Assembly: GCF_000007985.2 (NCBI RefSeq)
Contig: NC_002939.5
Coordinates: 870,001-902,000, forward strand
Length of the DNA: 32,000 bases
Reading direction: 5' to 3'
From: Geobacter sulfurreducens PCA
GTDB taxonomy: Bacteria; Desulfobacterota; Desulfuromonadia; Geobacterales; Geobacteraceae
A program made the position numbers and the translations under genes. Shown piece after piece: positions 868 through 25,231 of the stretch. Every line of letters begins with the position of its first letter. Position 1 is the stretch's first letter. The notes below the pieces were generated by a model, which saw nothing but the letters and a program-made list of their open reading frames with translations, ran no database searches and was not told the origin of the DNA.

Positions 868-3114
868 CTATCCCGTCACGGGCAGTTCGATGACGAACTT
901 GGTCCCCCGGGGCTCGTTGTCCCGCACCCGGATGAACCCGTGATGGTCGGTGATGATGCTGCTGACGATGGCGAGCCCCAGGCCGGTGCCCGACGCCTTG
1001 GTGGAGAAGTAGGGCTCGAAGACCCGCGTCTTGTCCTCCGGGGGGATGCCCGGCCCCGTATCGGCCACGGTCACCACCGCCATTTTCAGCTCCGGATCGA
1101 AGCGGCTCATGATCCGGACCTCGCCCGTCCCCCCCATGGCCGCCACGGCGTTGTCCAGGAGGTTGATGAAGACCCGCTTGATCTGGTCCCGGTCCAGCTG
1201 CAGCAGGGGCAGCCGGTCGTCGGCGCTGAAGCCGAACGCGACGCCGCGGTGCCCTTCCCGGAAGAGGGTGACTGCCTCGCGGATGACGGCGTTCAGGTCG
1301 TTGGGGGAGGGATGGGCCGCAGGCATCCGGGCGAAGTTGGAGAACTCGTCCACCAGGGTCTTCAGTTCGTCAACGGATTTGACGATCATGGCCGTGCACT
1401 CGTCAAAGACCCGGTCTTCGTCGCCGAAGCGGGGAAGGTAGCGCTTGCGCAGCCGTTGGGCCGAGAGCTGGATCGGGGTCAGCGGATTCTTGATCTCGTG
1501 GGCGATGCGGCGGGCCACCTCGCGCCAGGCGGCCATCCGCTGGGCCTTGATCAACTGGGTCATGTCGTCGAAGACCACCACGGTGCCGAGGAATTCGCCG
1601 CTCTCGTCCCGCAGGACCGACAGGTTGAAGAGGAACGTCGCCCGGCTGTCCCGCACCGGCACCGTGATCTGGCGGCTGATGCTGTCCTTCTTGGCCATGA
1701 CCATGTCCCGCAGGACCCCCTTCACGATGTCGAGCTGCTCTCCCTTGAGCACCTCCCGGAAGTTGTGGCCCACGGCCCGGGGCATGTCGATCTGCAGGAG
1801 CCGGGCCGCTGAGGGGTTGATGGTGGTTATCGTCCCCCCCCGGTCCACGGCGATGACCCCGGCAGCCACGTTGCGGAGCACAATTTCCATATGGCGCCGC
1901 CGCTGTTCCAGTTCCTGGTTGCTGCGCGACAACTCGTCGTTGGCGTTTTTCAGGGCCAGCTGGTTGCTTCGCAGGTCGTCGGTCATCTTGTTGAAGGCGG
2001 CCACCAGCATGCCCAGCTCATCGTCGGTCCGCTGGCCCAGGCGGATGTTCAGGTTTCCCTCGGCCACCTGACGGGTCGCTTCGGCCAGTTCCTGGATCGG
2101 CGTGGTGAGGCTGTTGGCCAGGTGGAGTCCGAACCAGACCGCCAGGAAGATAATCACCATGGTGATCAGGAACAGGGCCAGGATGTAGCCGGACCGGATG
2201 GGATTCTTCAGGATTTTGAGCTGACGGAACTGCTCGTAGGAGGCGGTGATCTCCCGCATTTTCTCCACCAGGGAGTAGGGGACGAAGTAGTTGACCACCA
2301 CCGCCCCCACCACCTCGTCGGCGCGGTAGGTGGAATAGATCGGCACGATGCCGCGGATGAGGTCGGCCTTACCCACCGTGTTGACCCGGGTCAGTTCCTT
2401 GCCGTTGAGCCCCTGCTTGATGTCTTCGGAGGAAGGGTTGGTGAACTCCCCCAGCGGGAGCCCCGGGTTCGCGGCGCGGACCAGCTCCTCATTCTGGGCC
2501 GAGTAGACCTCCACGATTCCCAGGTTGTACTCCTTCTGCTTCTGGCGGATCAGCTCCTTCATCCGCGGCAGGTTCTCGTCGTTGAGCAGGCGCTGGTCCC
2601 GGATGATGGCGCTGATCTGGTTACCGTAGTAGAGAGCGTTGGCCGCCGAATTCTTGTAGTAGGTCTGGGCAACCTCCAGCGATTCGGAGAGGGAGTTTTC
2701 GATCTGGGTGTTGAACCAGTTGCGGATGCTCTGGTTCACGTAGGTGGCCGAGACAAAGAACAGGAGCATGGTGGGGATGATGGAGAGGCTCACGAAGGCG
2801 ATGACGAGTTTCGTGCGCAGGTTGGCCCCCAGGGCCTTGCCCCGTCGCTCCATCAGAAGCTTTGCCACGTTGCGGAACAGAAGGTAGATGAGGAGGATGA
2901 TCAGCAGGATGATGACGTTGATGACGCCGAAGATCAGGAAGTTGCTCCCCATCGGCACATCGGAGCTGATGCGCGACAGGTGGATCTCCACCCGGGTCAG
3001 GATCAGGATCAGGAGCACCGACAGGGCGATGACGATCCCTTCGCGGCGCCGCTTGATCCGTTCCCGTTCGGCTGGTGTTGCTGTAGGCGTGCTGTCCGTG
3101 GTCCGTTTGTCCAT
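868..3114 (-). CDS. NtrY-like sensor histidine kinase (TM-HAMP-PAS-HisKA-HATPase)
   Basis: ORF 868..3150 (760 aa). It has N-terminal hydrophobic helices and a HAMP-like segment ([38 protein letters not shown]). It also has a PAS-like segment ([28 protein letters not shown]), H-box [18 protein letters not shown]-box [10 protein letters not shown] and G-boxes DTGPGIP and [10 protein letters not shown] set the start at ATG 3114 (MDKRTTD..) because the GTG at 3150 lies next to or inside the putative -10 box. Confidence 0.9.
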
Positions 3115-3150
3115 GGGGCGTCCGAGGTGTGGCGTAAATGCAACAGTCAC

Positions 3151-3179
3151 ACTCTAGCGGAACGCAGCGGATTATGCAA
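3151..3179 (-). promoter_or_regulatory. putative sigma-70 promoter for the NtrY-like kinase operon
   Basis: Minus strand reads TTGCAT (3179-3174), a 17-nt spacer, then TAGAGT (3156-3151). The predicted TSS is about 30 nt upstream of ATG 3114. Confidence 0.4.
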
Positions 3180-3214
3180 GGAGTCGATGTGGCGGGAGAA
3201 ATACGCCCCGGATG

Positions 3215-3242
3215 AAAAAACGGGGAGAGTGGCCTCTCCCCG
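3215..3242 (-). terminator. rho-independent terminator ending the mla operon
   Basis: Minus strand reads CGGGGAGAG-gcca-CTCTCCCCG (9-bp perfect GC-rich stem, 4-nt loop) followed immediately by TTTTTT. It lies 28 nt downstream of the mlaC stop. Confidence 0.8.
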
Positions 3243-3269
3243 CGTCGATGCTGCCAAGTGCCGTCACGC

Positions 3270-3872
3270 TTACGGCATGCTGATCTCCTTGTTCTTGGAG
3301 CGCAGTTTTTTTACCAGTTCCGCGTACCCCTGGTTGGTGATGATCTTGTTGAACTGGGTCCGGTAGTTGGAGACGAGGCTGACCCCTTCGATGACGATGT
3401 CGTAGACCACCCACTTGCCGCCCTTGAGCATGAGGCGGTAGTCGAGAGAGTACTCGTCGCGCCGGGCGGTGACGATCTTGCTCCTGACCTCGGCATAGTC
3501 GCCGTCGATGGCCTCCTTCAGGTAAACCACCTTCTCCTGGTTGTAGGACTCGATCTTGCCGGCGTAGGAGTTCTCCAGCAGATTTTCGAAGAGATCCACG
3601 AACTCCTTCTTCTCGGCGGCGTTCCGATCGCGCCAGTGGCGCGCCATGGCCCGCTGGGCCATTTCGGCGGAATCGAACACCGTGCCGATGGCCCGCTTGA
3701 TCTCCTGGCGGCGCCGTTTTTCGTTCTGGGGCTTTTTCAGTTCCTTGTCCGAGACGATTTTGATGACGTCGTCAACGGTCTTCTTCACCGTTTCGGTGGG
3801 CGAGGGCTGGGCCAGGGCGGTGCCGGAGACGGCCAGGGTGACGAAGAGGATGGGAAGCAGGATCCATTTCAT
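3270..3872 (-). CDS. mlaC: MlaC/Ttg2D-family periplasmic phospholipid-binding protein
   Basis: 200-aa ORF with signal peptide MKWILLPILFVTLAVSGTALA. The body shows the typical MlaC pattern: FDSAEMAQRAMARHW, FVDLFENLLENSYAGKIESY, KWVVYDIVIEGVSLVSNYRTQF. Confidence 0.9.
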   Translation of the reverse strand: MKWILLPILFVTLAVSGTALAQPSPTETVKKTVDDVIKIVSDKELKKPQNEKRRRQEIKRAIGTVFDSAEMAQRAMARHWRDRNAAEKKEFVDLFENLLENSYAGKIESYNQEKVVYLKEAIDGDYAEVRSKIVTARRDEYSLDYRLMLKGGKWVVYDIVIEGVSLVSNYRTQFNKIITNQGYAELVKKLRSKNKEISMP

Positions 3873-15403: not shown

Positions 15404-15515
15404 GCAGTTCCTCCCTGCCCCCCGGTGGGGCCGTTGCCGTGATGCTGTCGGAAAACCCGGTATTCCGCGTTTGAAGGAGGCCCGGCCTTGCGGGCCATCC
15501 GGAGAGGAGTCAGCC

Positions 15516-16424
15516 ATGACCGCACGCCGCATCTCCCGCGTTTTCAAAAGCCGGCCCACCGTCGAGGGGGCCGGCGTCCACATCAAGCGCGCCTTCGGCT
15601 ATTCGCAGGTGCCGCTGTTCGACCCGTTTCTCATGCTGGACGACTTTCACACCGCCAACCCTGCCGAGTACCTGCCGGGCTTTCCCTGGCACCCGCACCG
15701 GGGCATCGAAACCATCACCTATGTGCTCGAAGGACTGGTGGAGCACGGCGACAGCATGGGGAACAAGGGGGTCATCGGCGCGGGCGATGTGCAGTGGATG
15801 ACCGCCGGCAGCGGCATCATCCACCAGGAGATGCCCCAGCCGAGCCCCACCGGCATGATGTGGGGATTCCAGTTCTGGGCGAACCTGCCGGCGGACCGCA
15901 AGATGATGGACCCCCGCTACCGCGACGTGAAGGCCGCCGACATCCCGGAAGTCGTTCTGGATCGGGGCATCCGGGTCAAGATCGTCAGCGGCACGGTCAA
16001 CGGCGTTCAGGGCCCGGTGCGCGACATTATCATCGACCCGGAAATGCTCGACGTCAGCGTCCCGGCCGGTGAGGTTTTCACCCATCCGGTCAAGGAGGGG
16101 CATACGGCCGTGGCCTATGTCCTTGACGGCGAGGGGTATTTCGACGACCGCCGCGATCCCTTTGCTTTTGAAATGACAGGCTCGGGCTGGATGGATGTGA
16201 CGCGGCGCTGTGTCTGCGGCCCCGAAACGGTCATCCTCTACGAGCGCGACGGCGCTGCGGTGGCGGTGACTGCCGGCGACCGGCCGGTCCGCTTTCTCTT
16301 CATTTCCGGCAAACCCCTCAATGAGCCGGTGGCCTGGTACGGCCCCATTGTCATGAATACCAACGAGGAACTGCGGACCGCCTTTGAGGAGTACGAAAAG
16401 GGGAGGTTCATCAAGCACCGGTAG
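15516..16424 (+). CDS. pirin family protein
   Basis: This is the in-frame internal start of ORF 15357..16424, where ATG 15516 follows GGAGAGGAG. Pirin signature: GFPWHPHRGIETITYVLEG..HGDSMGN..GDVQWMTAGSGIIHQEMP. Confidence 0.92.
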   Translation: MTARRISRVFKSRPTVEGAGVHIKRAFGYSQVPLFDPFLMLDDFHTANPAEYLPGFPWHPHRGIETITYVLEGLVEHGDSMGNKGVIGAGDVQWMTAGSGIIHQEMPQPSPTGMMWGFQFWANLPADRKMMDPRYRDVKAADIPEVVLDRGIRVKIVSGTVNGVQGPVRDIIIDPEMLDVSVPAGEVFTHPVKEGHTAVAYVLDGEGYFDDRRDPFAFEMTGSGWMDVTRRCVCGPETVILYERDGAAVAVTAGDRPVRFLFISGKPLNEPVAWYGPIVMNTNEELRTAFEEYEKGRFIKHR

Positions 16425-16569: not shown

Positions 16570-16764
16570 ATGCTGATCCGTGTCCAGTATCCTGACGGCC
16601 GTTATGACTACGTGAAGCACACGCGTCTCGACGACCTGATCGATTCCGTGAAGATTTCCCGGTTCCTCCGCTCCAGCGGCTGGGTCGTGATCGGTGAAGA
16701 CCCCGTTCGCCGCAGAGGCAACAGGGCTCCGTACGTCGGGCCCGAGCGACGACTAGCCGCCTGA
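16570..16764 (+). CDS. small (64 aa) hypothetical protein
   Basis: ORF MLIRVQYPDGRYDYVKHTRLDDLIDSVKISRFLRSSGWVVIGEDPVRRR..YVGPERR. A GGGGGGTGA RBS lies 7 nt upstream, and the strong promoter above precedes it. It resembles a small protein family I recall from Geobacter genomes, but I cannot verify this. Confidence 0.6.
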   Translation: MLIRVQYPDGRYDYVKHTRLDDLIDSVKISRFLRSSGWVVIGEDPVRRRGNRAPYVGPERRLAA

Positions 16765-17050: not shown

Positions 17051-17080
17051 TTGACATGCTCAACAACGCACGACTATGAT
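17051..17080 (+). promoter_or_regulatory. sigma-70 promoter of the heavy-metal efflux operon
   Basis: Perfect TTGACA (17051-17056), an 18-nt spacer, then TATGAT (17075-17080). Confidence 0.6.
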
Positions 17081-17111
17081 GACTCAACTCATGAAAGCGT
17101 GGCCAGTGCGT

Positions 17112-17480
17112 ATGCGATCCAGCGTGCTCAAAAAAATGATAGCCGTCATGCTCCTCGTGGCTCTGGTCGCCATTGCCGGCAATGGTCGTTGCTTTGCCCT
17201 GGACGCGGGCAATTCCCTCCAGCCATCGTACGGGAAAGCCGGAGAGACCGTGCTCAAGTCCTGCTGCGGGGAGGAGACTCCCTGTTGCCCCACTGACAAT
17301 GATTCCGCTTCGGATCATTGCAGTACCTGTTTTTCCTGCCCCTGCAGCGCCCCCCTGAGCAGCCACGGAGCCCTGGTTTCCTATGCTCCCCTTATTGCCA
17401 GCATCTCTTTCCTCGAACATCGCAACGCACCACCCGACGTGTATCTCTCCATTTTCGTTCCACCCCAGATACTCGCCTAA
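17112..17480 (+). CDS. CzcI-like secreted Cys-rich protein (first gene of the efflux operon)
   Basis: ORF 17076..17480. The ATG at 17076 lies inside the -10 box, so the start is more likely 17091, 17112 or 17136. Sec-type signal peptide MRSSVLKKMIAVMLLVALVAIAGNGRCFA. Cys cluster SCCGEETPCCPTDNDSASDHCSTCFSCPCS. C-terminal APPDVYLSIFVPPQ. Confidence 0.7.
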   Translation: MRSSVLKKMIAVMLLVALVAIAGNGRCFALDAGNSLQPSYGKAGETVLKSCCGEETPCCPTDNDSASDHCSTCFSCPCSAPLSSHGALVSYAPLIASISFLEHRNAPPDVYLSIFVPPQILA

Positions 17481-17606
17481 CCTGCTGAAGTAGCGGCCGC
17501 CAGGCCGTTAGGGATTGGTGCGTCCAGCGCCCGGATTCCCATTCTTCAGCACTCCTTCGTTTTCCCCAACCAATCGGACATTGAATACCTGCAAGGAGGT
17601 ACTGTC

Positions 17607-18914
17607 TTGGTACGAGCATCTCGTTTCGTGTCTGGAGCAGTCCATCTGTTCCTGACAGCTGTAATTCTCGCCCCACTGGGGGCTTCAGGCGAGGTTCGCA
17701 CACTGACCCTGCCGCAGGCGGTTGAGTATGCCCTGGCACACAACGGCGAGCTGAAGGCTCTGCGCAACGAAAAGGACGTGGCGCGGGCAGGGCTGGAGCG
17801 CGCCGTGCTTCTGCCCAATCCTACCCTGGAGTTGTCGGCCGACTCCGGCGTCATGACCGGCAGTCCCGACGAAACCGCCCTTTCCATCGGCATTTCTCAG
17901 GAGTTCCTGACCGGCGGCAAGCGGGCCAAGCGCCGGGCCGTTGCCGAACGCGAGGCGGAGGCGGTTCATTTCCAGATCGCCGACCGTGAGCGGCAGCTCT
18001 CCCTGGATGTAAAGAGTTCTTTCTCCGAACTGATTCTGGCTCAGAAACGGCGGGAACTCGCCGGGCGTGCAGTGGAGCTGAACGGAAAGCTGCTGGAGAT
18101 AACACGGGAGCGTCTGGCAGCGGGCGATATTCCGGAACTGGAGGTTAACCTTGCCCGGGTGGAGGTGGCCCGGAGCGAAGGACGCAAAATCGAGGCGGAA
18201 CGGGAGTTCGCTCCGCTGCTGGCCAGGCTGAGGACTCTGCTGGGGGTTCCGGCGGGGGAGGAGATCGGTTTCGACGGCATTCCCGAGCAGTCGCCCCTGT
18301 CGATTTCCCTTGACGATCTCATTCGTCTGGCCCTGGAGAACCGGCCCGATCTGAAGGCATTCCAGGCCACCAGCGCAAAGGGTGAGGCCGCCGTTGAGCT
18401 GGCCGAGGCGGAGCGCATCCCGAACGTGACGCTCGGCCTCGGCTTCACCCACGAGCGGAGCACGGACGCCACCGGCTCCGGCGATGAAAAGACCCGCGAT
18501 AACCTGCTGGGGGTGACCCTGTCTATTCCGCTCCCCCTTTTCGACCGCAATCAGGCCGGCATCCGCGAGGCCCGGGCCGTCAGGCAGGGGGCCGACAACC
18601 GGCTGGAGTTCGCCCGTTCGAGCGTGCCCCGGGAGATCGAGGGCGATTACGCGCGGCTTGCAGCGGCCGAGAAGACCCTCAGGCTCTACGCCGACGGCAT
18701 TCTTCCCCAGCTTGAGGACAACCTGAAGCTCGTCCAGGAGGCGTACCGGCTGGGCGAGGTCGGAATCCTCGCAGTCATTGAAGAGCAGAAAAAGTATATC
18801 GAAGTCAACGACGGTTACCTTGTCGCCCTCGCCGAGCGGCAGGCGGCCCTGGCCCGGCTCGAAGCCTCTGTCGGGACCGATTTCCAGAACAGAACCAACG
18901 GAGGTGCGCAGTGA
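17607..18914 (+). CDS. TolC/CzcC-family outer membrane factor of the RND system
   Basis: 435-aa ORF with a TTG start 7 nt after AAGGAGG. It has a signal peptide and the TLTLPQAVEYALAHNGELKAL opening typical of OMF proteins, plus two repeated halves. Confidence 0.92.
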   Translation: MVRASRFVSGAVHLFLTAVILAPLGASGEVRTLTLPQAVEYALAHNGELKALRNEKDVARAGLERAVLLPNPTLELSADSGVMTGSPDETALSIGISQEFLTGGKRAKRRAVAEREAEAVHFQIADRERQLSLDVKSSFSELILAQKRRELAGRAVELNGKLLEITRERLAAGDIPELEVNLARVEVARSEGRKIEAEREFAPLLARLRTLLGVPAGEEIGFDGIPEQSPLSISLDDLIRLALENRPDLKAFQATSAKGEAAVELAEAERIPNVTLGLGFTHERSTDATGSGDEKTRDNLLGVTLSIPLPLFDRNQAGIREARAVRQGADNRLEFARSSVPREIEGDYARLAAAEKTLRLYADGILPQLEDNLKLVQEAYRLGEVGILAVIEEQKKYIEVNDGYLVALAERQAALARLEASVGTDFQNRTNGGAQ

Positions 18915-20182
18915 ACAGGAAACGTGGGATCATTATCGGCCTTGTCCTGGCCATGGCCCTGGGGGGTGGTTTCTTCGCCTATCGTTCCACCCAGGTGACG
19001 GACGGCGCCGGCGGGCACACCGGCTCGAAGGATGCCGGTCACAAGGAGGAAAAGGCCGGTCACGACGGGGAAAAGGGGCACGGCGAAGAGAACGGCGGCC
19101 ATGACGGACATGGGGAGGAAGGCCGGATTTCAATGGCAGTCGAGGCACAGAAGCAGAACGGCGTGGTCGTGGCCGCCGCCGCAGCACAGCGGCTTGCCGG
19201 CGTGATCAGCGCCACCGGCAAAGTGGAGGCCAATGCCGACCGGACCGCCCATGTTTCGCCGCGCATTTCCGGCAAGATCGTCAGTGTCCGGGCCTCCCTC
19301 GGCGACAGCGTCGCCGCCGGCCAGCCCCTTGTGACCCTGGACAGCGTCGAGCTGGGCGAAGCCCTGAACCGCTACCACCAGTCGAAGACGCGGCTGGCCC
19401 TGGCCCAGTCCAACATGGACCGGATCAAGGCACTGGTGGAGAAGAAGATCGCGGCCCGCAAGGACATCCTCCAGGCGGAGACCGACTACACAATGGCCCA
19501 GACCGAACTGCATACCGACGAGGAGCGCCTCGCCCTGTACGGCGTTTCGGCGTCGGACCTCACAAACGCACGCCACAGGAAGCCGCTGCTGCCGGTCCGC
19601 TCTCCCATCGGCGGCGTCATCACTGAAAAACACGCCATCGTCGGCGAATTGGCCGATCCTTCAAAGAGCCTCTTTACCGTGGCCGACCTCTCGTCGGTCT
19701 GGGTGATGGTGGACATCAACGAAAAGGACCTGGCTAAGGTCCACCGCGGGCAATCCGCCACCGTCACCCTTGGTGCGTTTCCCGACGTGAAGCTGAAAGG
19801 GCGCATCACCTACATTGCCGATCTCGTCGACGTCAGCACCCGTACCGTCAAGGCCCGGGTCGAGGTACCCAACCCGGCGCGGAAGCTGAAGCCGGAGATG
19901 TTCGCCACGGTGGAACTGACGCTGGCGGCCGACGCGCCGCCGGTCCTGGCGGTCCCCGAGGATGCCCTGCAGGATCTGGACGGGAAAAAGGTCGTTTTCG
20001 TAGTGGAGAAGGATTCGGTATTCGCGGCCCGTCCGGTACAGATCGGCCGGGCGGCCGGCGGCCTGGTGGAAATCGTTTCAGGGCTGAACGAGGGGGAACG
20101 CTATGCCGTCAAGGGCTCGTTCATTCTGAAGTCGGAGCTGAAAAAGGGCGAGATGACGGACGAGCACGGCCACGGCGAATGA
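18911..20182 (+). CDS. RND efflux periplasmic adaptor (CzcB/CusB-type MFP) with His-rich N-terminus
   Basis: 423-aa ORF. Its GTG start overlaps the OMF stop (GTGA, 4-nt overlap). It has a TM anchor, a GH-repeat region and the adaptor core: VSPRISGKIVSV.., GQPLVTLDS, LPVRSPIGGVITEKH, VWVMVDINEKDL. It ends in DEHGHGE. Confidence 0.92.
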   Translation: MNRKRGIIIGLVLAMALGGGFFAYRSTQVTDGAGGHTGSKDAGHKEEKAGHDGEKGHGEENGGHDGHGEEGRISMAVEAQKQNGVVVAAAAAQRLAGVISATGKVEANADRTAHVSPRISGKIVSVRASLGDSVAAGQPLVTLDSVELGEALNRYHQSKTRLALAQSNMDRIKALVEKKIAARKDILQAETDYTMAQTELHTDEERLALYGVSASDLTNARHRKPLLPVRSPIGGVITEKHAIVGELADPSKSLFTVADLSSVWVMVDINEKDLAKVHRGQSATVTLGAFPDVKLKGRITYIADLVDVSTRTVKARVEVPNPARKLKPEMFATVELTLAADAPPVLAVPEDALQDLDGKKVVFVVEKDSVFAARPVQIGRAAGGLVEIVSGLNEGERYAVKGSFILKSELKKGEMTDEHGHGE

Positions 20183-20215
20183 CCACCACCGACCATTACG
20201 TAAAGCGAGGTTCCG

Positions 20216-23200
20216 ATGCTGGAGAAACTGATTGCCTATACGCTGCGCCAGAAGGGGATGGTCATCTTCCTGGCGTTGCTGATTATCGTCATTGGAGTGT
20301 ATTCCTACGCGAAACTGCCCATCGACGCCTTCCCGGACGTGACCAACATCCAGGTTGAGGTCGTCAGCCATGCCGACGGCCTGTCGGCGATCGAGATCGA
20401 GCGGAACGTCACCTACCCGATCGAGATGGCCATGCGCGGCCTGCCCGACATCGAGCAGATGCGCTCGGTCACCAAGTTCGGCCTGTCGATTGTTACCATT
20501 GTCTTCAAGGACAACGTGGACATCTACTTTGCCCGGCAACTGGTGTTCGAGCGTCTGGCCGAGGCCCGGGAGAAGGTGCCGAAGGGGGTCGAAGTCGCCA
20601 TGGGGCCCATCGGCACGGCCATGGGAGAGATCTATCAGTACACCCTGGAAGGGGAGATGCCCCGAGACCCCCGGCAGAAGATCGAGTACCTGACCAACCT
20701 GCGGACCATCCAGGAGTGGATCGTCACCCCGCAGCTCAAAAGTGTTGCCGGCGTCAACGAGATCAACTCTTTCGGGGGCTACTTCAAGCAGTACCAAGTG
20801 CTCGTATCGCCTGAAAAACTCCTGAAGTACGGCGTTACCGTGGATGACGTCTATACCGCCATCGGCAGCAACAACGAAAACGTCGGCGGCAACCTGCTGG
20901 AGCGGGGGACGGACCAGTACATCGTCCGCGGTGTCGGCCTGATCACGGATACGAACGATATTGGAACTATCGTCCTGAAGTCCTCCGGCGGCACTCCCAC
21001 CTATATCCGCGACGTGGCCGAAGTCAAGGTGGGCGAGGCGGTCCGCATGGGCGCGGCCATGAAGGACGGCAAGGACGAGTGCGTCGGCGGCATCGTCATG
21101 ATGCTGCGGGGGGAAAACAGCCGCGACGTGGTGCGCCGGGTCGCGGATAAAGTGAAGGAGATCAACGAAAACAACGTGCTGCCGGAAGGGATCAAAATCG
21201 TCCCCTTCTACGACCGCAGCGACATCGTCAAGGCAAGCGTGGGGACGGTCAACAGGGCGCTCATCGAGGGATCGATCCTCGTCCTGATTATCCTGTACCT
21301 GCTGCTGAACAGCGTCCGGGGGAGCATCGTGGTCCTGATCGCGCTGCCGCTCTCCCTGCTGGCCACCTTCATCGTGATGAGGCTCACGGGGATCAGCGCC
21401 AACCTCATGTCGCTGGGCGGCCTGGCCATCTCCATCGGGATGATCATCGACACCACGATCATTCAGGTGGAGAACGTCCAGCGCCACCTGAGCGAGGGAG
21501 GGGAGCACCATCCCAAGCTGCTAACGGTGCTGAAGGCCGTCATGGAGGTCCGCAAGCCGAGCATCTTCGGCGAACTGATCATCGCGCTCACCTTTATCCC
21601 GATCCTGTCCCTGGAGGGAATCGAAGGTAAGATGTTCGGGCCCCTGGCCATCACCGTGGCCATTGCGCTGCTGTCCTCCCTGTTTCTCTCCATTTTCATC
21701 ATTCCGGTGCTCTGCAGCCTGTTCCTGAAACCGCAGCCGGAGCAGGAGAGCTTCATCATGCGGCACGCCCACCGGCTCTATCTGCCGCTGCTCGACTACG
21801 CCATGGCCAAAAAGCGCGTGGTGCTGGGCGTTGCCGGCGTGCTCCTGGTGGCGTCGGTGCTTCTGGTCTCCCGGCTGGGCACCGAGTTCATTCCGACCAT
21901 GGACGAAGGCGCATTCGACATGGACGTTTCCATGCTCCCCGGCGTTTCCCTGGACAAGGCCATGGAGGTCAACCAGCGCGTCGCAGAGAAGCTGAAGCAG
22001 TTCCCCGAGCTGGGCACGGTGGTGTCGCGGACCGGCCAGACCGGGGTGGCCCTGGACACCAGGGGCTCGGACAAGACCGGCTACGTGGGGATCTTCAAGC
22101 CGAAGGACGAATGGCCGCGGGACATCTCGAAGGAGGAGCTGACCAACGAGATGCGCGAGTCCCTGGAATCGGTAGCCGGCATCACCTTCGGCTTCAGCCA
22201 GCCGATCCAGTGCCGCATCGACGAACTGGTGGCCGGCACCCGGGCCCAGTTGATCCTGAAGCTCTTCGGCGACGATATCGACGTGCTCAGCGCTAAATCC
22301 CAGGAAATCGCCAAGGTGCTCTCCACCATCAGGGGAGGGACCGACCTGAACGCGGAGAAGATCTCGGGCCAGCCGTATCTCACCGTCGACATCGACCGGT
22401 CCAGGATCGCCCGGTACGGCCTGAACATCAGCGACGTGCAGAAGGTGATCGAGATCGCGGTTGCCGGCAAGGCAGCCTCGCAGCTCTACGAAGAGAACCG
22501 CAGCTTCGACATAACCGTGCGCCTGCCGGAAGAAAAGCGGAACTCTCTGGACGCGATCAAGAACCTGATCATCACTACGAAAACCGGCATCAACGTGCCC
22601 CTCGAACAGTTGGCCGAGGTGAAGATGATCGAGGGCCCGGTGCAGATCAGCCGCCAGGACGGGGTGCGCCGCATCGGCATTGAAATGAACATCACCGGCC
22701 GGGATATCGGCGGTTTCGTGGCCGAGGCGAAACAGAAGATCAAAGAGCAGGTCAAGCTCCCCCCCGGTTACTACCTTACCTGGGGCGGACAGTTCGAGAA
22801 CCAGCAGCGGGCCATGAAAAAGCTGATGATCATCGGGCCGGTGGCCATCGGCCTGATTCTGCTGTTGCTCTACGTGACCTTCCGGTCCATCCGCCTGGCG
22901 CTCCTAGTCATCTCCAACCTCCCGTTCGCCCTGATCGGCGGCGTCTTCTCCCTGTTCATCTCGGGCCAGTACCTGTCAGTGCCGGCATCCGTCGGCTTCG
23001 TGGTCCTCTTCGGCGTGGCCGTGCTGAACGGCCTGGTGCTGGTGTCGCGGATATCCCAATTGCGGGATGAAGGCTTCGAGCTGCAGGAGGCCATCCGGCG
23101 GGGGACCGTCGACCGCCTGCGGCCGGTGCTGATGACCGCATCCATCGCCATATTCAGCCTGATTCCCATGCTTCTGGCCAGCGGCACCGGGTCCGAAATC

Positions 23201-23320
23201 CAGAAGCCGCTGGCAACGGTTGTGGTCGGTGGCCTGGTAACGTCCACCCTGCTGACGCTGCTGGTCATCCCGTCGGTGTACAGCTGGTTTGAGAAGAGAA
23301 GCGTGGAAGAGGAGATGTAG
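20216..23320 (+). CDS. CusA/CzcA-family heavy-metal efflux RND transporter
   Basis: 1034-aa ORF. The N-terminus MLEKLIAYTLRQKGMVIFLALLIIVIGVYSYAKLPIDAFPDVTNIQVEV is typical of HME-RND pumps. The TM4 motif is SIGMIIDTTIIQVEN. The topology is 12 TM helices with two large loops. Confidence 0.95.
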   Translation: MLEKLIAYTLRQKGMVIFLALLIIVIGVYSYAKLPIDAFPDVTNIQVEVVSHADGLSAIEIERNVTYPIEMAMRGLPDIEQMRSVTKFGLSIVTIVFKDNVDIYFARQLVFERLAEAREKVPKGVEVAMGPIGTAMGEIYQYTLEGEMPRDPRQKIEYLTNLRTIQEWIVTPQLKSVAGVNEINSFGGYFKQYQVLVSPEKLLKYGVTVDDVYTAIGSNNENVGGNLLERGTDQYIVRGVGLITDTNDIGTIVLKSSGGTPTYIRDVAEVKVGEAVRMGAAMKDGKDECVGGIVMMLRGENSRDVVRRVADKVKEINENNVLPEGIKIVPFYDRSDIVKASVGTVNRALIEGSILVLIILYLLLNSVRGSIVVLIALPLSLLATFIVMRLTGISANLMSLGGLAISIGMIIDTTIIQVENVQRHLSEGGEHHPKLLTVLKAVMEVRKPSIFGELIIALTFIPILSLEGIEGKMFGPLAITVAIALLSSLFLSIFIIPVLCSLFLKPQPEQESFIMRHAHRLYLPLLDYAMAKKRVVLGVAGVLLVASVLLVSRLGTEFIPTMDEGAFDMDVSMLPGVSLDKAMEVNQRVAEKLKQFPELGTVVSRTGQTGVALDTRGSDKTGYVGIFKPKDEWPRDISKEELTNEMRESLESVAGITFGFSQPIQCRIDELVAGTRAQLILKLFGDDIDVLSAKSQEIAKVLSTIRGGTDLNAEKISGQPYLTVDIDRSRIARYGLNISDVQKVIEIAVAGKAASQLYEENRSFDITVRLPEEKRNSLDAIKNLIITTKTGINVPLEQLAEVKMIEGPVQISRQDGVRRIGIEMNITGRDIGGFVAEAKQKIKEQVKLPPGYYLTWGGQFENQQRAMKKLMIIGPVAIGLILLLLYVTFRSIRLALLVISNLPFALIGGVFSLFISGQYLSVPASVGFVVLFGVAVLNGLVLVSRISQLRDEGFELQEAIRRGTVDRLRPVLMTASIAIFSLIPMLLASGTGSEIQKPLATVVVGGLVTSTLLTLLVIPSVYSWFEKRSVEEEM

Positions 23321-23371: not shown

Positions 23372-23713
23372 ATGAAAGAGATAAAAGCGATTATCCGGCC
23401 GGCCAAATTGCTGGAGGTAACCGAGGAGCTTCACGCCATTGACGGGCTACCGGGAGTGACCGTATCGGAAATCAAAGGCTTCGGCAAAAGCAGGGCCAAA
23501 AACGCACAAGACAAGATTGTGTATGAAATGGTTGAGCTCGTTCCCCGCATTCAGCTGGAGGTCGTCGTTGATGACGGGATGGTCGAGGAAGTCGTCGCCG
23601 TGATCCGGAAACATGCTCATACCGGCACTGCCGGAGACGGCAAGATCTTCGTTTCCACGGTCGACGACATCATCAAGATCAGAACCAACGAACGGGGCAG
23701 AGATGCCATCTGA
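23372..23713 (+). CDS. P-II (GlnB-like) family signal protein linked to the RND pump
   Basis: 113-aa ORF with GAGGAG upstream. PII pattern: MKEIKAIIRP, a T-loop region GFGKSRAKNAQDKIVYEMVELVP, a B-loop TGTAGDGKIFV and a C-terminal IRTNERGRDAI. Confidence 0.9.
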   Translation: MKEIKAIIRPAKLLEVTEELHAIDGLPGVTVSEIKGFGKSRAKNAQDKIVYEMVELVPRIQLEVVVDDGMVEEVVAVIRKHAHTGTAGDGKIFVSTVDDIIKIRTNERGRDAI

Positions 23714-23766: not shown

Positions 23767-24360
23767 ATGAACAGGATCACCAGGATAGTGCTGACCGTTT
23801 TTACTATTGCCCTGCTCAGCGGCTGCGCGAGGTCCGCGGAGCTTATCCGGACCGCTGGCATAGCCGAGCGTCAGGACGTATTCGTCACGCAGGCAGAGGG
23901 GCAGCCCCTGCCGCCGGGCTATGCTGAGCTCCGGATCGTCTCGCTCCTGAAGACACATAAGCCGGGCCTGTATTCCTCCGCCGACGTCCACGGCACCCCG
24001 GGCTACAAGCTGCTGCTGAATATCGGCGGCCAGGCCCTGGAACTGTCGGGTGATCCCCGTCCCGAACGCAAGGAGCCGGTCGGGCCGCGCGACCCGGAAG
24101 CCGGAGACGGAATGAGGTATCAGTTCAGCCGGACCCTGCACGTCAAGGCCGGCACCCACCGCACCGTGATGGCCATCCCTGACGACACCATCGCCGTTGA
24201 AAAGGAGATCACCCTTGCCGACGGGAGCCGCAACACCCTGGTGCTGGAGCCGGTGTACGGGAAAATGCCCGTGCGGAGCCGGCCCTGGAATTACAATGTG
24301 ACCGATTTCAACGAAGGAATCCGGTCGCTGAGGGTTGTGTTCAACGGCAAGGAGAAGTAA
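23767..24360 (+). CDS. lipoprotein of unknown function (last gene of the efflux operon)
   Basis: In ORF 23752..24360 the ATG at 23767 follows AAAGGAG. Lipobox IALLSGC. I recognise no domain. Confidence 0.8.
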   Translation: MNRITRIVLTVFTIALLSGCARSAELIRTAGIAERQDVFVTQAEGQPLPPGYAELRIVSLLKTHKPGLYSSADVHGTPGYKLLLNIGGQALELSGDPRPERKEPVGPRDPEAGDGMRYQFSRTLHVKAGTHRTVMAIPDDTIAVEKEITLADGSRNTLVLEPVYGKMPVRSRPWNYNVTDFNEGIRSLRVVFNGKEK

Positions 24361-24397: not shown

Positions 24398-24441
24398 GGC
24401 GCACTCCTTTGCACTCTTCCTTCGGGAGTGCGCCGCTTTTT
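24398..24441 (+). terminator. rho-independent terminator of the efflux operon
   Basis: GGCGCACTCC (24398-24407) pairs perfectly with GGAGTGCGCC (24425-24434) and is followed by GCTTTTT. Confidence 0.75.
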
Positions 24442-24493
24442 AACTTCTCCCGCCCGATTGTCGCGGCGGCGGAAATAACCGGAGAACACCACG

Positions 24494-24937
24494 TTGAGAG
24501 GTCGGGTGCAGGCAATGACGCCACCGTTCCCATCCAGACAAGCCATGCTGGTGCGGGTTGTCGCAATGATAGCGTTGATCGTCCTCGCCGTAGCAACGGT
24601 CACTGCCGCAGGAGCCGGCGTCATCCCGCACCCTGCGGGCGGAGCCGTGGCTCATGCGGACGGGCACGCTCGGGGTGAGCATAGCCCCTGTCCCACTCCA
24701 TGCCACAACCCCGATTGCCACCGCTGCCACTGCACGACCACCATCCTCCCCGGCTCAGCGCTGGCCATGAGCCCTCCGGCCGTCCACTCGGTCGATTGGG
24801 GGGATGGTGACGGGTATCCGCCCGATCCGCCCCCCAGGTCGATATTTCACCCTCCACGTCCGGCATTGGCTACCCAGCACGGAGAATGTGAACCAGTCAA
24901 TGCTGCGGCCGGGTTTCCCCGGGAATGCCGGCCGTAA
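24494..24937 (+). CDS. second CzcI-like membrane-anchored His/Cys-rich protein
   Basis: 147-aa ORF with a TTG start (GGAG 9 nt upstream); alternative ATGs are at 24515 and 24545. TM/signal anchor VVAMIALIVLAVATVTAAGAG. His stretch HPAGGAVAHADGHARGEH. Cys cluster CPTPCHNPDCHRCHC. Later motif YPPDPPPRSIFHPPRP. Confidence 0.6.
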   Translation: MRGRVQAMTPPFPSRQAMLVRVVAMIALIVLAVATVTAAGAGVIPHPAGGAVAHADGHARGEHSPCPTPCHNPDCHRCHCTTTILPGSALAMSPPAVHSVDWGDGDGYPPDPPPRSIFHPPRPALATQHGECEPVNAAAGFPRECRP

Positions 24938-24964
24938 ATTACACAAATACGGAGAGTGAATACC

Positions 24965-25231
24965 ATGAAAAAGCTACTTGTTCTTGCGGCAATCGTATCC
25001 TTTGGCCTCAACGCCCTGCCTGTCTTCGCCCAACCCGAACCGACGGGCAAGGACGACCGCCTTGTGAACTGTACCTCCCGGGACAGCCTGCCCGAACGTA
25101 TCACCAGGCTGGAAAAAGAGATCGCCAAGGGGGAGCGCGTCTACACCGCGGCGGAACTGGACCGGCTCGAACGGAAGCGTGACGAGGCAAAGGACATGCT
25201 GCGCGTCCTGATGCTGGGGGGTAAGCGTTAG
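24965..25231 (+). CDS. small secreted coiled-coil protein
   Basis: ATG 24965 lies 8 nt after GGAGAG. Signal peptide MKKLLVLAAIVSFGLNALPVFA, then a charged helical region ERITRLEKEIAKGERVYTAAELDRLERKRDEAKDML. Confidence 0.7.
   Translation: MKKLLVLAAIVSFGLNALPVFAQPEPTGKDDRLVNCTSRDSLPERITRLEKEIAKGERVYTAAELDRLERKRDEAKDMLRVLMLGGKR

Follow-up and report, generated by a model that had tools for sequence, protein, structure and literature searches.

Within a 32,000-nucleotide (nt) stretch of Geobacter sulfurreducens PCA DNA (contig NC_002939.5, positions 870,001 to 902,000 of the forward strand; hereafter the window, to which all coordinates refer), we analysed two small proteins, GSU0827 (protein 1) and GSU3510 (protein 2). 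They are encoded near the genes czcC-czcB-czcA (17607..23320), which, judging from their sequences, specify a heavy-metal efflux pump of the resistance-nodulation-division (RND) type. Both proteins are probably (at a probability of about 0.6) cis-acting leader peptides of the CutF/CruR type, which would sense metals as nascent chains, and probably not stable periplasmic chaperones. The observations behind this reading concern family membership, the geometry of the motifs, synteny, conserved RNA structures and predicted RNA pairings. A sensor of the CutF/CruR type fits them better because of (i) a stop codon placed four residues past a Pro-Pro pair (PP), (ii) the conserved intergenic RNA, (iii) the lack of a predicted protein fold and (iv) the RNA pairing predicted for the protein 2 gene. 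No mention of GSU0827 or GSU3510 was found in the literature searched. The features of the protein 1 region are as follows.

17091..17480 (+), protein 1, GSU0827 (AAR34157.2), annotated as a hypothetical protein of 129 amino acids (aa), ATG 17091
17262..17345 (+), 8-Cys cluster CCGEETPCCPTDNDSASDHCSTCFSCPC of protein 1, presumed to be a metal-binding sensor segment
17427..17480 (+), C-terminal motif APPDVYLSIFVPPQILA of protein 1 and stop codon; PP at 17460-17465, stop four codons later
17483..17551 (+), branched stem-loop beginning 3 nt past the protein 1 stop codon, closing stem GCUGAAG/CUUCAGC, z = -2.6
17552..17592 (+), spacer, rich in C and poor in G, from the stem-loop to the czcC ribosome-binding site
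17594..17609 (+), translation-initiation region of czcC, with the strong Shine-Dalgarno sequence AAGGAGG and the TTG start codon 17607, near-invariant across loci
17607-18914 (+), czcC (GSU0828), with Pfam and NCBIfam matches
18911-20182 (+), czcB (GSU0829), with Pfam and NCBIfam matches
20216-23320 (+), czcA (GSU0830), with Pfam and NCBIfam matches

A word-indexed search with protein 1 retrieved three close relatives only. An exhaustive profile search revealed 139 clusters (50% identity) at E <= 1e-3, nearly all of them composed of proteins of 115-125 aa matched from end to end. Judging by these alignments, protein 1 is a member of a real, unannotated family of ~120-aa proteins. The consensus of the family comprises, in its N-terminal part, a signal peptide ending with …AHA, followed by CPxCP and DxCDxCxxCxCHAPL, and, in its C-terminal part, ~36 variable residues and the sequence LPEVYLSKF[IV]PPQNLA, directly followed by the stop codon. 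The PP is the sole invariant pair among 98 family sequences. The stop codon is located exactly 4 residues past the PP in 133 of 154 members, and of 157 members, 89 have a distance of exactly 39 aa from the last Cys to the PP and 119 one of 38-41 aa. At one locus (L026, ~3001-3550) the family open reading frame (ORF) reads past the usual stop (…FIPPQIHAYPPV…), a rare exception to this rule, explained perhaps by an error in sequencing or by natural variation.

Protein 1 contains 8 Cys residues (C51, C52, C58, C59, C70, C73, C76 and C78, numbered from position 17112) and terminates with …NAPPDVYLSIFVPPQILA. Its N-terminus resembles, by inspection, a signal peptide ending with CFA ahead of LD. No Pfam or NCBIfam entry matched protein 1 or protein 2 at E <= 1, and searches of PDB sequences with the two proteins returned nothing meaningful. 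A structure prediction with AlphaFold, for which the 98-sequence alignment was used, gave an N-terminal helix only (residues 2-24) and no globular fold (predicted template modelling score, pTM, 0.26). The segment that follows the Cys cluster is conserved (APL…Y.P…EPF), and its per-residue confidence (pLDDT) is 70-82.

The genomic context of the family was inspected in a genome scan that was seeded with a 17-sequence sub-alignment, so that the 43 loci found are biased towards the PEVYL[SP]KFI subgroup. All of these loci come from Geobacteraceae, Desulfuromonadales or Desulfobulbales-like genomes, several of which carry three copies. The family gene is located directly 5′ of czcC-czcB-czcA homologues in 41 of the 43 loci. 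The intergenic region between the leader and czcC is of 119-135 nt in most loci (126 nt in the window), and czcC starts with TTG, placed after a near-invariant AAGGAGG, in 39 of 42 cases. As DNA, this initiation region, with AAAGGAGGTTATTCCTTTGGGAAC as its Shine-Dalgarno sequence in the main clade, is far better conserved than the leader protein, and in most loci it can form a small local hairpin including part of the Shine-Dalgarno sequence.

Other genes also occur behind members of the family. At one of the two loci L001 (3001-6053) and L014 (2980-6275) a family member leads a MacB/FtsX-type ATP-binding cassette (ABC) exporter; at the other, a truncated P-II gene and a transposase-like gene come directly after the leader, which looks like a deletion of czcCBA from between leader and P-II. 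Members of the P0156 subgroup, with the tail …IFVPPQN.., are located in Desulfuromonadaceae ~112 nt 5′ of the cytochrome c biogenesis genes ResB/CcsB and CcsA (L051, 10001-12724; L052, 4708-7431), and their target is not a pump. This context suggests that the sensor module has been re-used for heme or thiol-redox related control.

The RNA between protein 1 and czcC is structured and conserved. Folding of the individual sequences of 38 loci revealed a domain of 60-75 nt, extending from +1..+8 to +63..+79, in ~25 of them. The sequence of its closing stem varies by clade (e.g. GCUGAAG/CUUCAGC vs CCACGAC/GUCGUGG) and its position is constant. An alignment of all clades made with MAFFT misaligns the 3′ arm, and we used the per-sequence folds and an alignment of the main group instead. 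In the main clade 92.5% of the cells are paired (44-61% in slid controls), and there are 13 double-change cells (vs 5.4 ± 2.1 in shuffles); the observed score was reached by none of 500 shuffles. The spacer that follows the stem-loop contains 26% C and 10.5% G, with C exceeding G in 37 of 37 loci, and on the basis of this composition it may, speculatively, constitute a Rho-loading region. It is possible that the leader RNA is coupled to czcC by remodelling at a distance or by a Rho-type switch.

Several simpler connections between the leader and czcC were considered and set aside. Shielding of the czcC ribosome-binding site by the stem-loop is not supported by the predicted accessibility of the Shine-Dalgarno sequence, which is 0.32 when the RNA is unblocked and 0.29 when 13 nt past the stop codon are blocked, i.e. 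unchanged. Masking of czcC initiation by the leader codons was dropped as a general mechanism, their complementarity to the czcC initiation region being no better than that of shuffles (mean z = -0.42, 37 loci); in the window, 17431-17448 can pair with 17595-17609 under an imposed footprint. A simple shielding of the ribosome-binding site in the manner of CutF is thus unsupported for protein 1. An intrinsic terminator after the leader was likewise discarded, since the U-run 3′ of the stem-loop in the window is not conserved. Rfam searches detected no known RNA family in the whole window or around the leader.

The features of the protein 2 region, located downstream of the pump operon, are as follows.

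24398-24434, with a T-run to 24441 (+), terminator-like hairpin (GGCGCACUCC…GGAGUGCGCC), which separates the pump operon from protein 2
24515..24937 (+), protein 2, GSU3510 (AFP20413.1), annotated as 140 aa from ATG 24515; TTG 24494 is an alternative start
24689-24733 (+), Cys/His cluster CPTPCHNPDCHRCHC of protein 2
24818-24862 (+), proline motif PPDPPPRSIFHPPRP of protein 2, followed by a 26-aa tail
24845..24856 (+), F-H-P-P codons UUUCACCCUCCA, predicted anti-Shine-Dalgarno partner of the ribosome-binding site of the 88-aa gene
24861..24934 (+), two hairpins, formed by protein 2 tail codons, which the long-range helix encloses
24951..25231 (+), 88-aa ORF with its Shine-Dalgarno sequence GGAGAG (24951-24956) and ATG 24965, presumed regulated target of protein 2

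The original prediction, made from the window alone, described both ORFs and held that the two proteins share an ordered architecture. The ORFs, both on the + strand, and the motifs quoted for them are present, and four lines of evidence (profile-profile alignment, a family hidden Markov model (HMM), a composite pattern and the spacing between Cys and PP) agree that the resemblance is not due to chance and that protein 2, with its N-terminal hydrophobic segment, 5 Cys and several His residues, is a probable remote, divergent paralogue of protein 1. In the profile-profile comparison (hhalign) the two were aligned with E = 1.1e-4 (57% probability) and E = 1.8e-4 (49%), with CxC…PP in the same register and one or two gaps. 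A family HMM from which protein 2 had been left out placed it second among all 410 six-frame segments of the window (E = 6.3e-4; next 0.13). Among 3806 six-frame segments, taken from the window and from 52 related loci, 41 carry the pattern C..C.C.{30,45}F.PP, and all 41 are family members or orthologues of protein 2. From the last Cys to the PP there are 39 residues in protein 1, whereas protein 2 has 40. The C-terminal SIF-PP motif that had been attributed to both proteins stands in part: PP is invariant in the family, but the SIF residues are not family-wide, as the consensus given above demonstrates.

Protein 2 may alternatively be unrelated to protein 1, or a non-coding ORF, in a leader region rich in GC, its resemblance being due to Pro/Cys composition and 24440-24964 being an RNA leader of the 88-aa gene, so that protein 1 alone would be genuine. 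We consider this improbable. The direct similarity is weak (BLASTP E = 0.019; hhalign probability ~50%), the orthologue of protein 2 in strain KN400 does not score above the best shuffle, and at 90% identity no more than two clusters, from G. sulfurreducens and a single close relative, were found among 5.8 billion proteins. Protein 2 also breaks the rule of a stop four residues past the PP, and its codon-position identity shows little third-position excess. However, the rank of protein 2 in the search with an HMM excluding it, the absence of any false positive of the composite motif in ~3,760 other segments and a distance between Cys and PP that falls inside the narrow range of the family (38-41) speak against it. 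Moreover, a 12-nt indel in the tail of protein 2 is in frame, the single substitution that separates the PPDPPPRSIFHPPRP codons from those of the 73%-identical orthologue (L044) is synonymous, and the synteny with the 88-aa gene is kept.

The terminator-like hairpin between the pump operon and protein 2 has z = -3.1, and none of 200 shuffles is equally stable. It is kept in the L044 orthologue, in which wobble pairs preserve the pairing despite a CA-to-TG change. Two alternative 5′ arms (GCGCACTCC and GCACTCTTCC) face a single 3′ arm (GGGAGTGCGC), which could be an attenuator or plain redundancy. Because this hairpin precedes protein 2, the latter would head a small unit of its own together with the 88-aa gene; the same unit is present in L044 and in KN400. 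The view that two paralogues bracket one pump therefore does not hold as a general design, since the hairpin sets protein 2 apart and protein 1 represents a family that leads czcCBA in 41 of 43 loci. In Geobacter grbiciae the leader and czcCBA are present and protein 2 is absent.

The distance from the end of protein 2 to the start of the 88-aa gene is 27 nt. The fold of 24846-24975 (z = -3.5) contains a long-range helix, UUCAC-C-CUCC : GGAG-A-GUGAA, whose predicted partners are the F-H-P-P codons and the Shine-Dalgarno region of the 88-aa gene. In L044 this helix extends further and takes in the AUG as well (z = -4.2; 0 of 200 shuffles equally stable). The predicted pairing probability is ~0.79 (4 of 5 nt) in all contexts of 130-600 nt, both in the window and in L044, and a ribosome footprint placed on the PP is predicted to free the Shine-Dalgarno sequence of the 88-aa gene in most contexts. 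The tail of protein 2 shows codon-position identities of 0.84/0.92/0.92 between the window and L044, and this equal conservation, together with the in-frame indel, gives the tail the appearance of being both translated and constrained as RNA. The 88-aa protein (24965-25231) contains a signal peptide, is predicted to be secreted and to form a coiled coil, and its C-terminal part is charged and helical; no Pfam family matched it.

Systems of this kind have been described in other bacteria. Export of CutF in Rhodobacter capsulatus is co-translational, and its action is restricted to cis; the protein requires CxxxC and a C-terminal PPP (…PEPEGPPPRL), and the binding of copper lengthens its stall, so that the ribosome melts a stem-loop that masks cutO's ribosome-binding site (Ozturk et al. 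2023, PMC9973294; preprint 10.1101/2025.02.05.636593). According to the same authors, the genes that most frequently follow CutF-like ones encode outer-membrane efflux proteins of RND pumps (CusC/CzcC type); not every CutF-like gene is copper-specific (PMC9973294). CruR (Bp2923) of Bordetella pertussis contains CXXC and a C-terminal RAPP and acts through Rho-dependent termination over a 162-nt intergenic region (Roy et al. 2022, PMC9426467). Both are members of DUF2946 (PF11162) and control downstream genes in cis by means of a Cys motif and a C-terminal proline motif (PMC9973294, PMC9426467, 10.1101/2025.02.05.636593).

Protein 1 shows the operational features given for CutF-like proteins (Ozturk et al. 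2023): it has 122-129 aa, a signal-peptide-like N-terminus and a PP 4 residues from its end, and czcC begins 126 nt further on. The metal-motif feature is found in both proteins, as 8 Cys in protein 1 and as 5 Cys with several His in protein 2. Protein 2 (140-147 aa, hydrophobic N-terminus) departs from the rule on the position of the PP, the last of which lies 26 residues from its end. The family resembles CutF in being composed of small exported proteins encoded right 5′ of a metal-homeostasis gene, with a Sec signal peptide, a Cys metal motif placed ~40 residues ahead of a proline motif at the C-terminal end, near the stop codon, and a structured RNA between leader and target; in CutF the metal motif and PPP are ~41 residues apart, as calculated from the residue numbers of the preprint. 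Protein 2 adds, in silico, a ribosome pause predicted to fall on the strand masking the ribosome-binding site of the next gene. The differences from CutF include (i) the Cys motif, CPxCP…DxCxxCxxCxCH (6-8 Cys) vs CxxxC, (ii) the tail, F[IV]PPQNLA, with four residues after PP, vs GPPPRL, (iii) the target, a Zn/Co/Cd-type RND pump vs a multicopper oxidase, (iv) the host clade, Desulfuromonadales/Geobacterales, and (v) the stem-loop behind protein 1, which excludes the ribosome-binding site, located ~45-60 nt later.

The profile of DUF2946 (gathering score 23.7 bits) gave sub-threshold matches in 15 of 98 family members (best E = 2.4e-4), and any other Pfam family matched at most 2 members. Two matches cover nearly the full profile (P0042, 15.6 bits, positions 4-97 of 117; P0144, positions 4-115). 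No match was obtained with two ten-protein subsets of the family. The sequences thus point to a remote relationship between the family and DUF2946, short of formal membership.

CruR, like the proteins described here, is an upstream ORF with a C-terminal proline motif and a long intergenic region, and it senses metal through the Cys residues of its nascent chain. A Rho-dependent output would suit the 126-nt intergenic region of protein 1 with its C-rich spacer, as far as base composition indicates. CruR differs in its motifs (CXXC and RAPP), in being reported to be independent of its signal sequence and in repressing a TonB-dependent importer when copper is present. SecM, VemP, MifM and TnaC share with the family an arrest or pause element at the C-terminal end of a leader ORF, and in these systems ribosome occupancy remodels the downstream RNA or blocks Rho (PMC9973294); they sense secretion capacity or tryptophan, not metals, and show no sequence similarity to the family.

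The mechanism that we infer extends to export, to the binding of a metal and the choice of that metal, to stalling and to the direction of regulation. On the czcCBA transcript protein 1 would be the first to be translated, its signal peptide directing it to co-translational export. The Cys cluster, located ~39 residues before the PP, would be out of the ribosome or leaving it when the PP is reached, four codons ahead of the stop. Metal binding or the thiol state of the cluster would then alter the dwell time of the ribosome at the PP or at the stop codon, and this dwell time would remodel the stem-loop starting 2-8 nt past the stop, or block the loading of Rho on the C-rich spacer. Either event would set the expression of czcC-czcB-czcA from the conserved TTG. 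Protein 2 would be a divergent copy, confined to the G. sulfurreducens lineage, in which the same logic is more visible: its PPDPPPRSIFHPPRP stretch would act as a strong pause site, and a ribosome paused there would unmask the ribosome-binding site of the 88-aa gene, the predicted pairing partner of its F-H-P-P codons (…CACCCUCC…). According to this folding model, protein 2 may represent a CutF design in which the stall codons themselves constitute the masking strand.

A broader and more doubtful proposal is that multi-Cys arrest leaders spread through the Desulfuromonadales sense periplasmic Zn/Co/Cd, or the thiol/redox state, co-translationally. Unlike CutF, which acts by masking, they might act ~120 nt away through structured RNA and possibly Rho; they would have been re-used before ResB/CcsA and an ABC exporter, and in G. 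sulfurreducens as a second copy whose stall codons are an anti-Shine-Dalgarno sequence. We put this forward tentatively.

Several observations weigh against the assignment of the two proteins as leader peptides. The z-scores of the intergenic folds are modest (mean -1.4), the stem-loop (17483..17551) does not include the Shine-Dalgarno sequence of czcC, and neither the blocking of the nucleotides past the stop nor the complementarity of the leader codons, both described above, reveals a connection to czcC initiation. To our knowledge, PPQ is not a classic strong stall motif. The window proteins are unmatched by DUF2946 at E <= 1, and all family matches fall under the Pfam cut-off. As regards protein 2, its codon-position identities with L044 (0.87/0.87/0.82) give little sign of purifying selection on the protein, its two independent sequences provide no measure of covariation, and CCUCC arises naturally from Pro codons. 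The fixed length of the C-terminal end could also signify a docking motif in a stable protein.

This last point leads to the alternative that both proteins are stable secreted periplasmic metal binders with Cys or His ligands, either a quencher resembling CzcI or a chaperone resembling CusF, which would dock to CzcB/CzcC by their proline tail. The likeness to CzcI, suggested in the original prediction, is partly real. The features given there are accurate, as CzcI of pMOL30 combines a signal peptide with a His-rich stretch, DTDCGVCH and, at its C-terminal end, APDRPQWQRLA. Protein 1 lies immediately 5′ of czcC, exactly as czcI does in pMOL30 (protein 2 is not so placed), and the two proteins resemble CzcI/CzcI2 in their signal peptide, in a stretch rich in His or Cys and in a DCxxC(H) core. 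CzcI of Cupriavidus metallidurans is described as a periplasmic protein that quenches the activity of CzcCBA, and not as a cis-acting leader (PMC10127602), and a conserved segment such as the one following the Cys cluster of protein 1 could be a binding surface. However, neither protein matched the CzcI models NF045614 (Cupriavidus type) and NF045615 (Acinetobacter type) at E <= 1; the model cut-off is 100 bits, and CzcI of pMOL30, as a positive control, scored 172.5 bits (E = 5e-51) on NF045614. The hhalign comparison of the protein 1 family with CzcI gave a probability of 1%. That of the protein 2 family gave 20% (E = 1.1e-3), which is suggestive only, the weak alignment spanning the hydrophobic segment, the His-rich stretch and DCxxCH. 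Membership in the CzcI family is therefore rejected on the results with the two models and the 1% probability of the family, and GSU0827 and GSU3510 should not carry the CzcI label. CzcI itself matches DUF2946 below threshold (E = 0.026); Ozturk et al. assigned it to one of their 29 "CutF-like" clusters and noted the absence of the proline motif (PMC9973294).

The suggestion of periplasmic metal sensing or chaperoning divides accordingly. Sensing outside the cytoplasm is plausible, both proteins being Cys/His-rich and encoded at a metal-efflux locus, but a chaperone fits poorly because of the PP with its stop four residues later, the structured intergenic RNA, the lack of a predicted fold and the pairing between the PP codons of protein 2 and the Shine-Dalgarno sequence of the 88-aa gene. 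A stable protein would also leave the length of the intergenic region and the TTG start of czcC unexplained, and the occurrence of family members ahead of ResB/CcsA and MacB-type ABC operons argues against a specific docking to CzcCBA. We therefore regard stable periplasmic binders as rather unlikely, and as the chief alternative to leader peptides. The idea that the family consists of precursors of ribosomally made, Cys-rich modified peptides, e.g. metal chelators exported by the adjoining pump, is favoured by the small size and Cys content of the proteins, the adjoining exporter and, in one relative (L050), a B12/radical-SAM gene two genes upstream, but can be dismissed, since no maturase is conserved in the neighbourhood of the family gene (in the window, the upstream genes encode a pirin and a GSU3473-family protein), the proteins begin with a classic Sec signal peptide rather than the leader of such peptides, and what is conserved is located at their very C-terminal end and in the RNA downstream.

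Leader peptides of this kind are already known, and the authors of the CutF study predicted that they are widespread ahead of efflux pumps. What appears to be new is a large unannotated Desulfuromonadales clade with its own motif and a very regular geometry, as set against the published description of the 29 CutF-like clusters; new too are the link to Zn/Co/Cd-type pumps and a second copy with an anti-Shine-Dalgarno sequence inside the stall codons. If the assignment is true, it explains how Geobacter and its relatives switch on CzcA (GSU0830), one of their most conserved genes (PMC2825233), and extends the use of a nascent exported peptide as a transmembrane metal sensor from copper systems of Proteobacteria to Zn/Co/Cd-type RND pumps of another phylum. 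The regular succession of Cys cluster, 39 residues, PP, 4 residues, stop and stem-loop would constitute a clean test bed, which could reveal how the binding of a ligand beyond the membrane reaches the peptidyl-transferase centre. About 140 protein clusters that are now "hypothetical" could receive a name.

The start of protein 1 and the sequences upstream of it may be described as follows. ATG 17091 is a more likely start than position 17112, which had been chosen originally, because the annotation of GSU0827 gives the 129-aa form and close relatives retain MKAW. A further ATG (17076) falls within the -10 box of a promoter-like sequence.

17051..17080 (+), sigma-70-like promoter, TTGACA-18 nt-TATGAT, 11 of 12 positions matching, identified by its match to the consensus

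This near-consensus pair of -35 and -10 boxes ends 10 nt ahead of ATG 17091. The transcript may start ~3-5 nt before this ATG, as estimated from the position of the boxes, which would make the ORF of protein 1 near-leaderless; czcI2 of C. metallidurans has likewise been reported as leaderless (PMC10127602). Upstream of the promoter are genes for a small protein of the GSU3473 family (16570-16764, NCBIfam E = 8.5e-27) and a pirin (15510-16424). No regulator gene was identified between these genes and the pump operon, nor was any two-component system or MerR-type regulator adjoining the operon found among the genes examined.

The N-terminus of CzcA is 90-95% identical across many Geobacteraceae loci, and GSU0830 has been listed, alongside ribosomal proteins, among the best-conserved Geobacter proteins (PMC2825233). 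A metal-resistance pump is not usually so well conserved, which hints at a role in housekeeping. The operon contains two further genes after czcA.

23372-23713 (+), P-II-like gene, directly after czcA, Pfam E = 7e-25
23767-24360 (+), gene of a putative lipoprotein of 197 aa, the final gene of the pump operon

A gene of the P-II family after the pump recurs in relatives.

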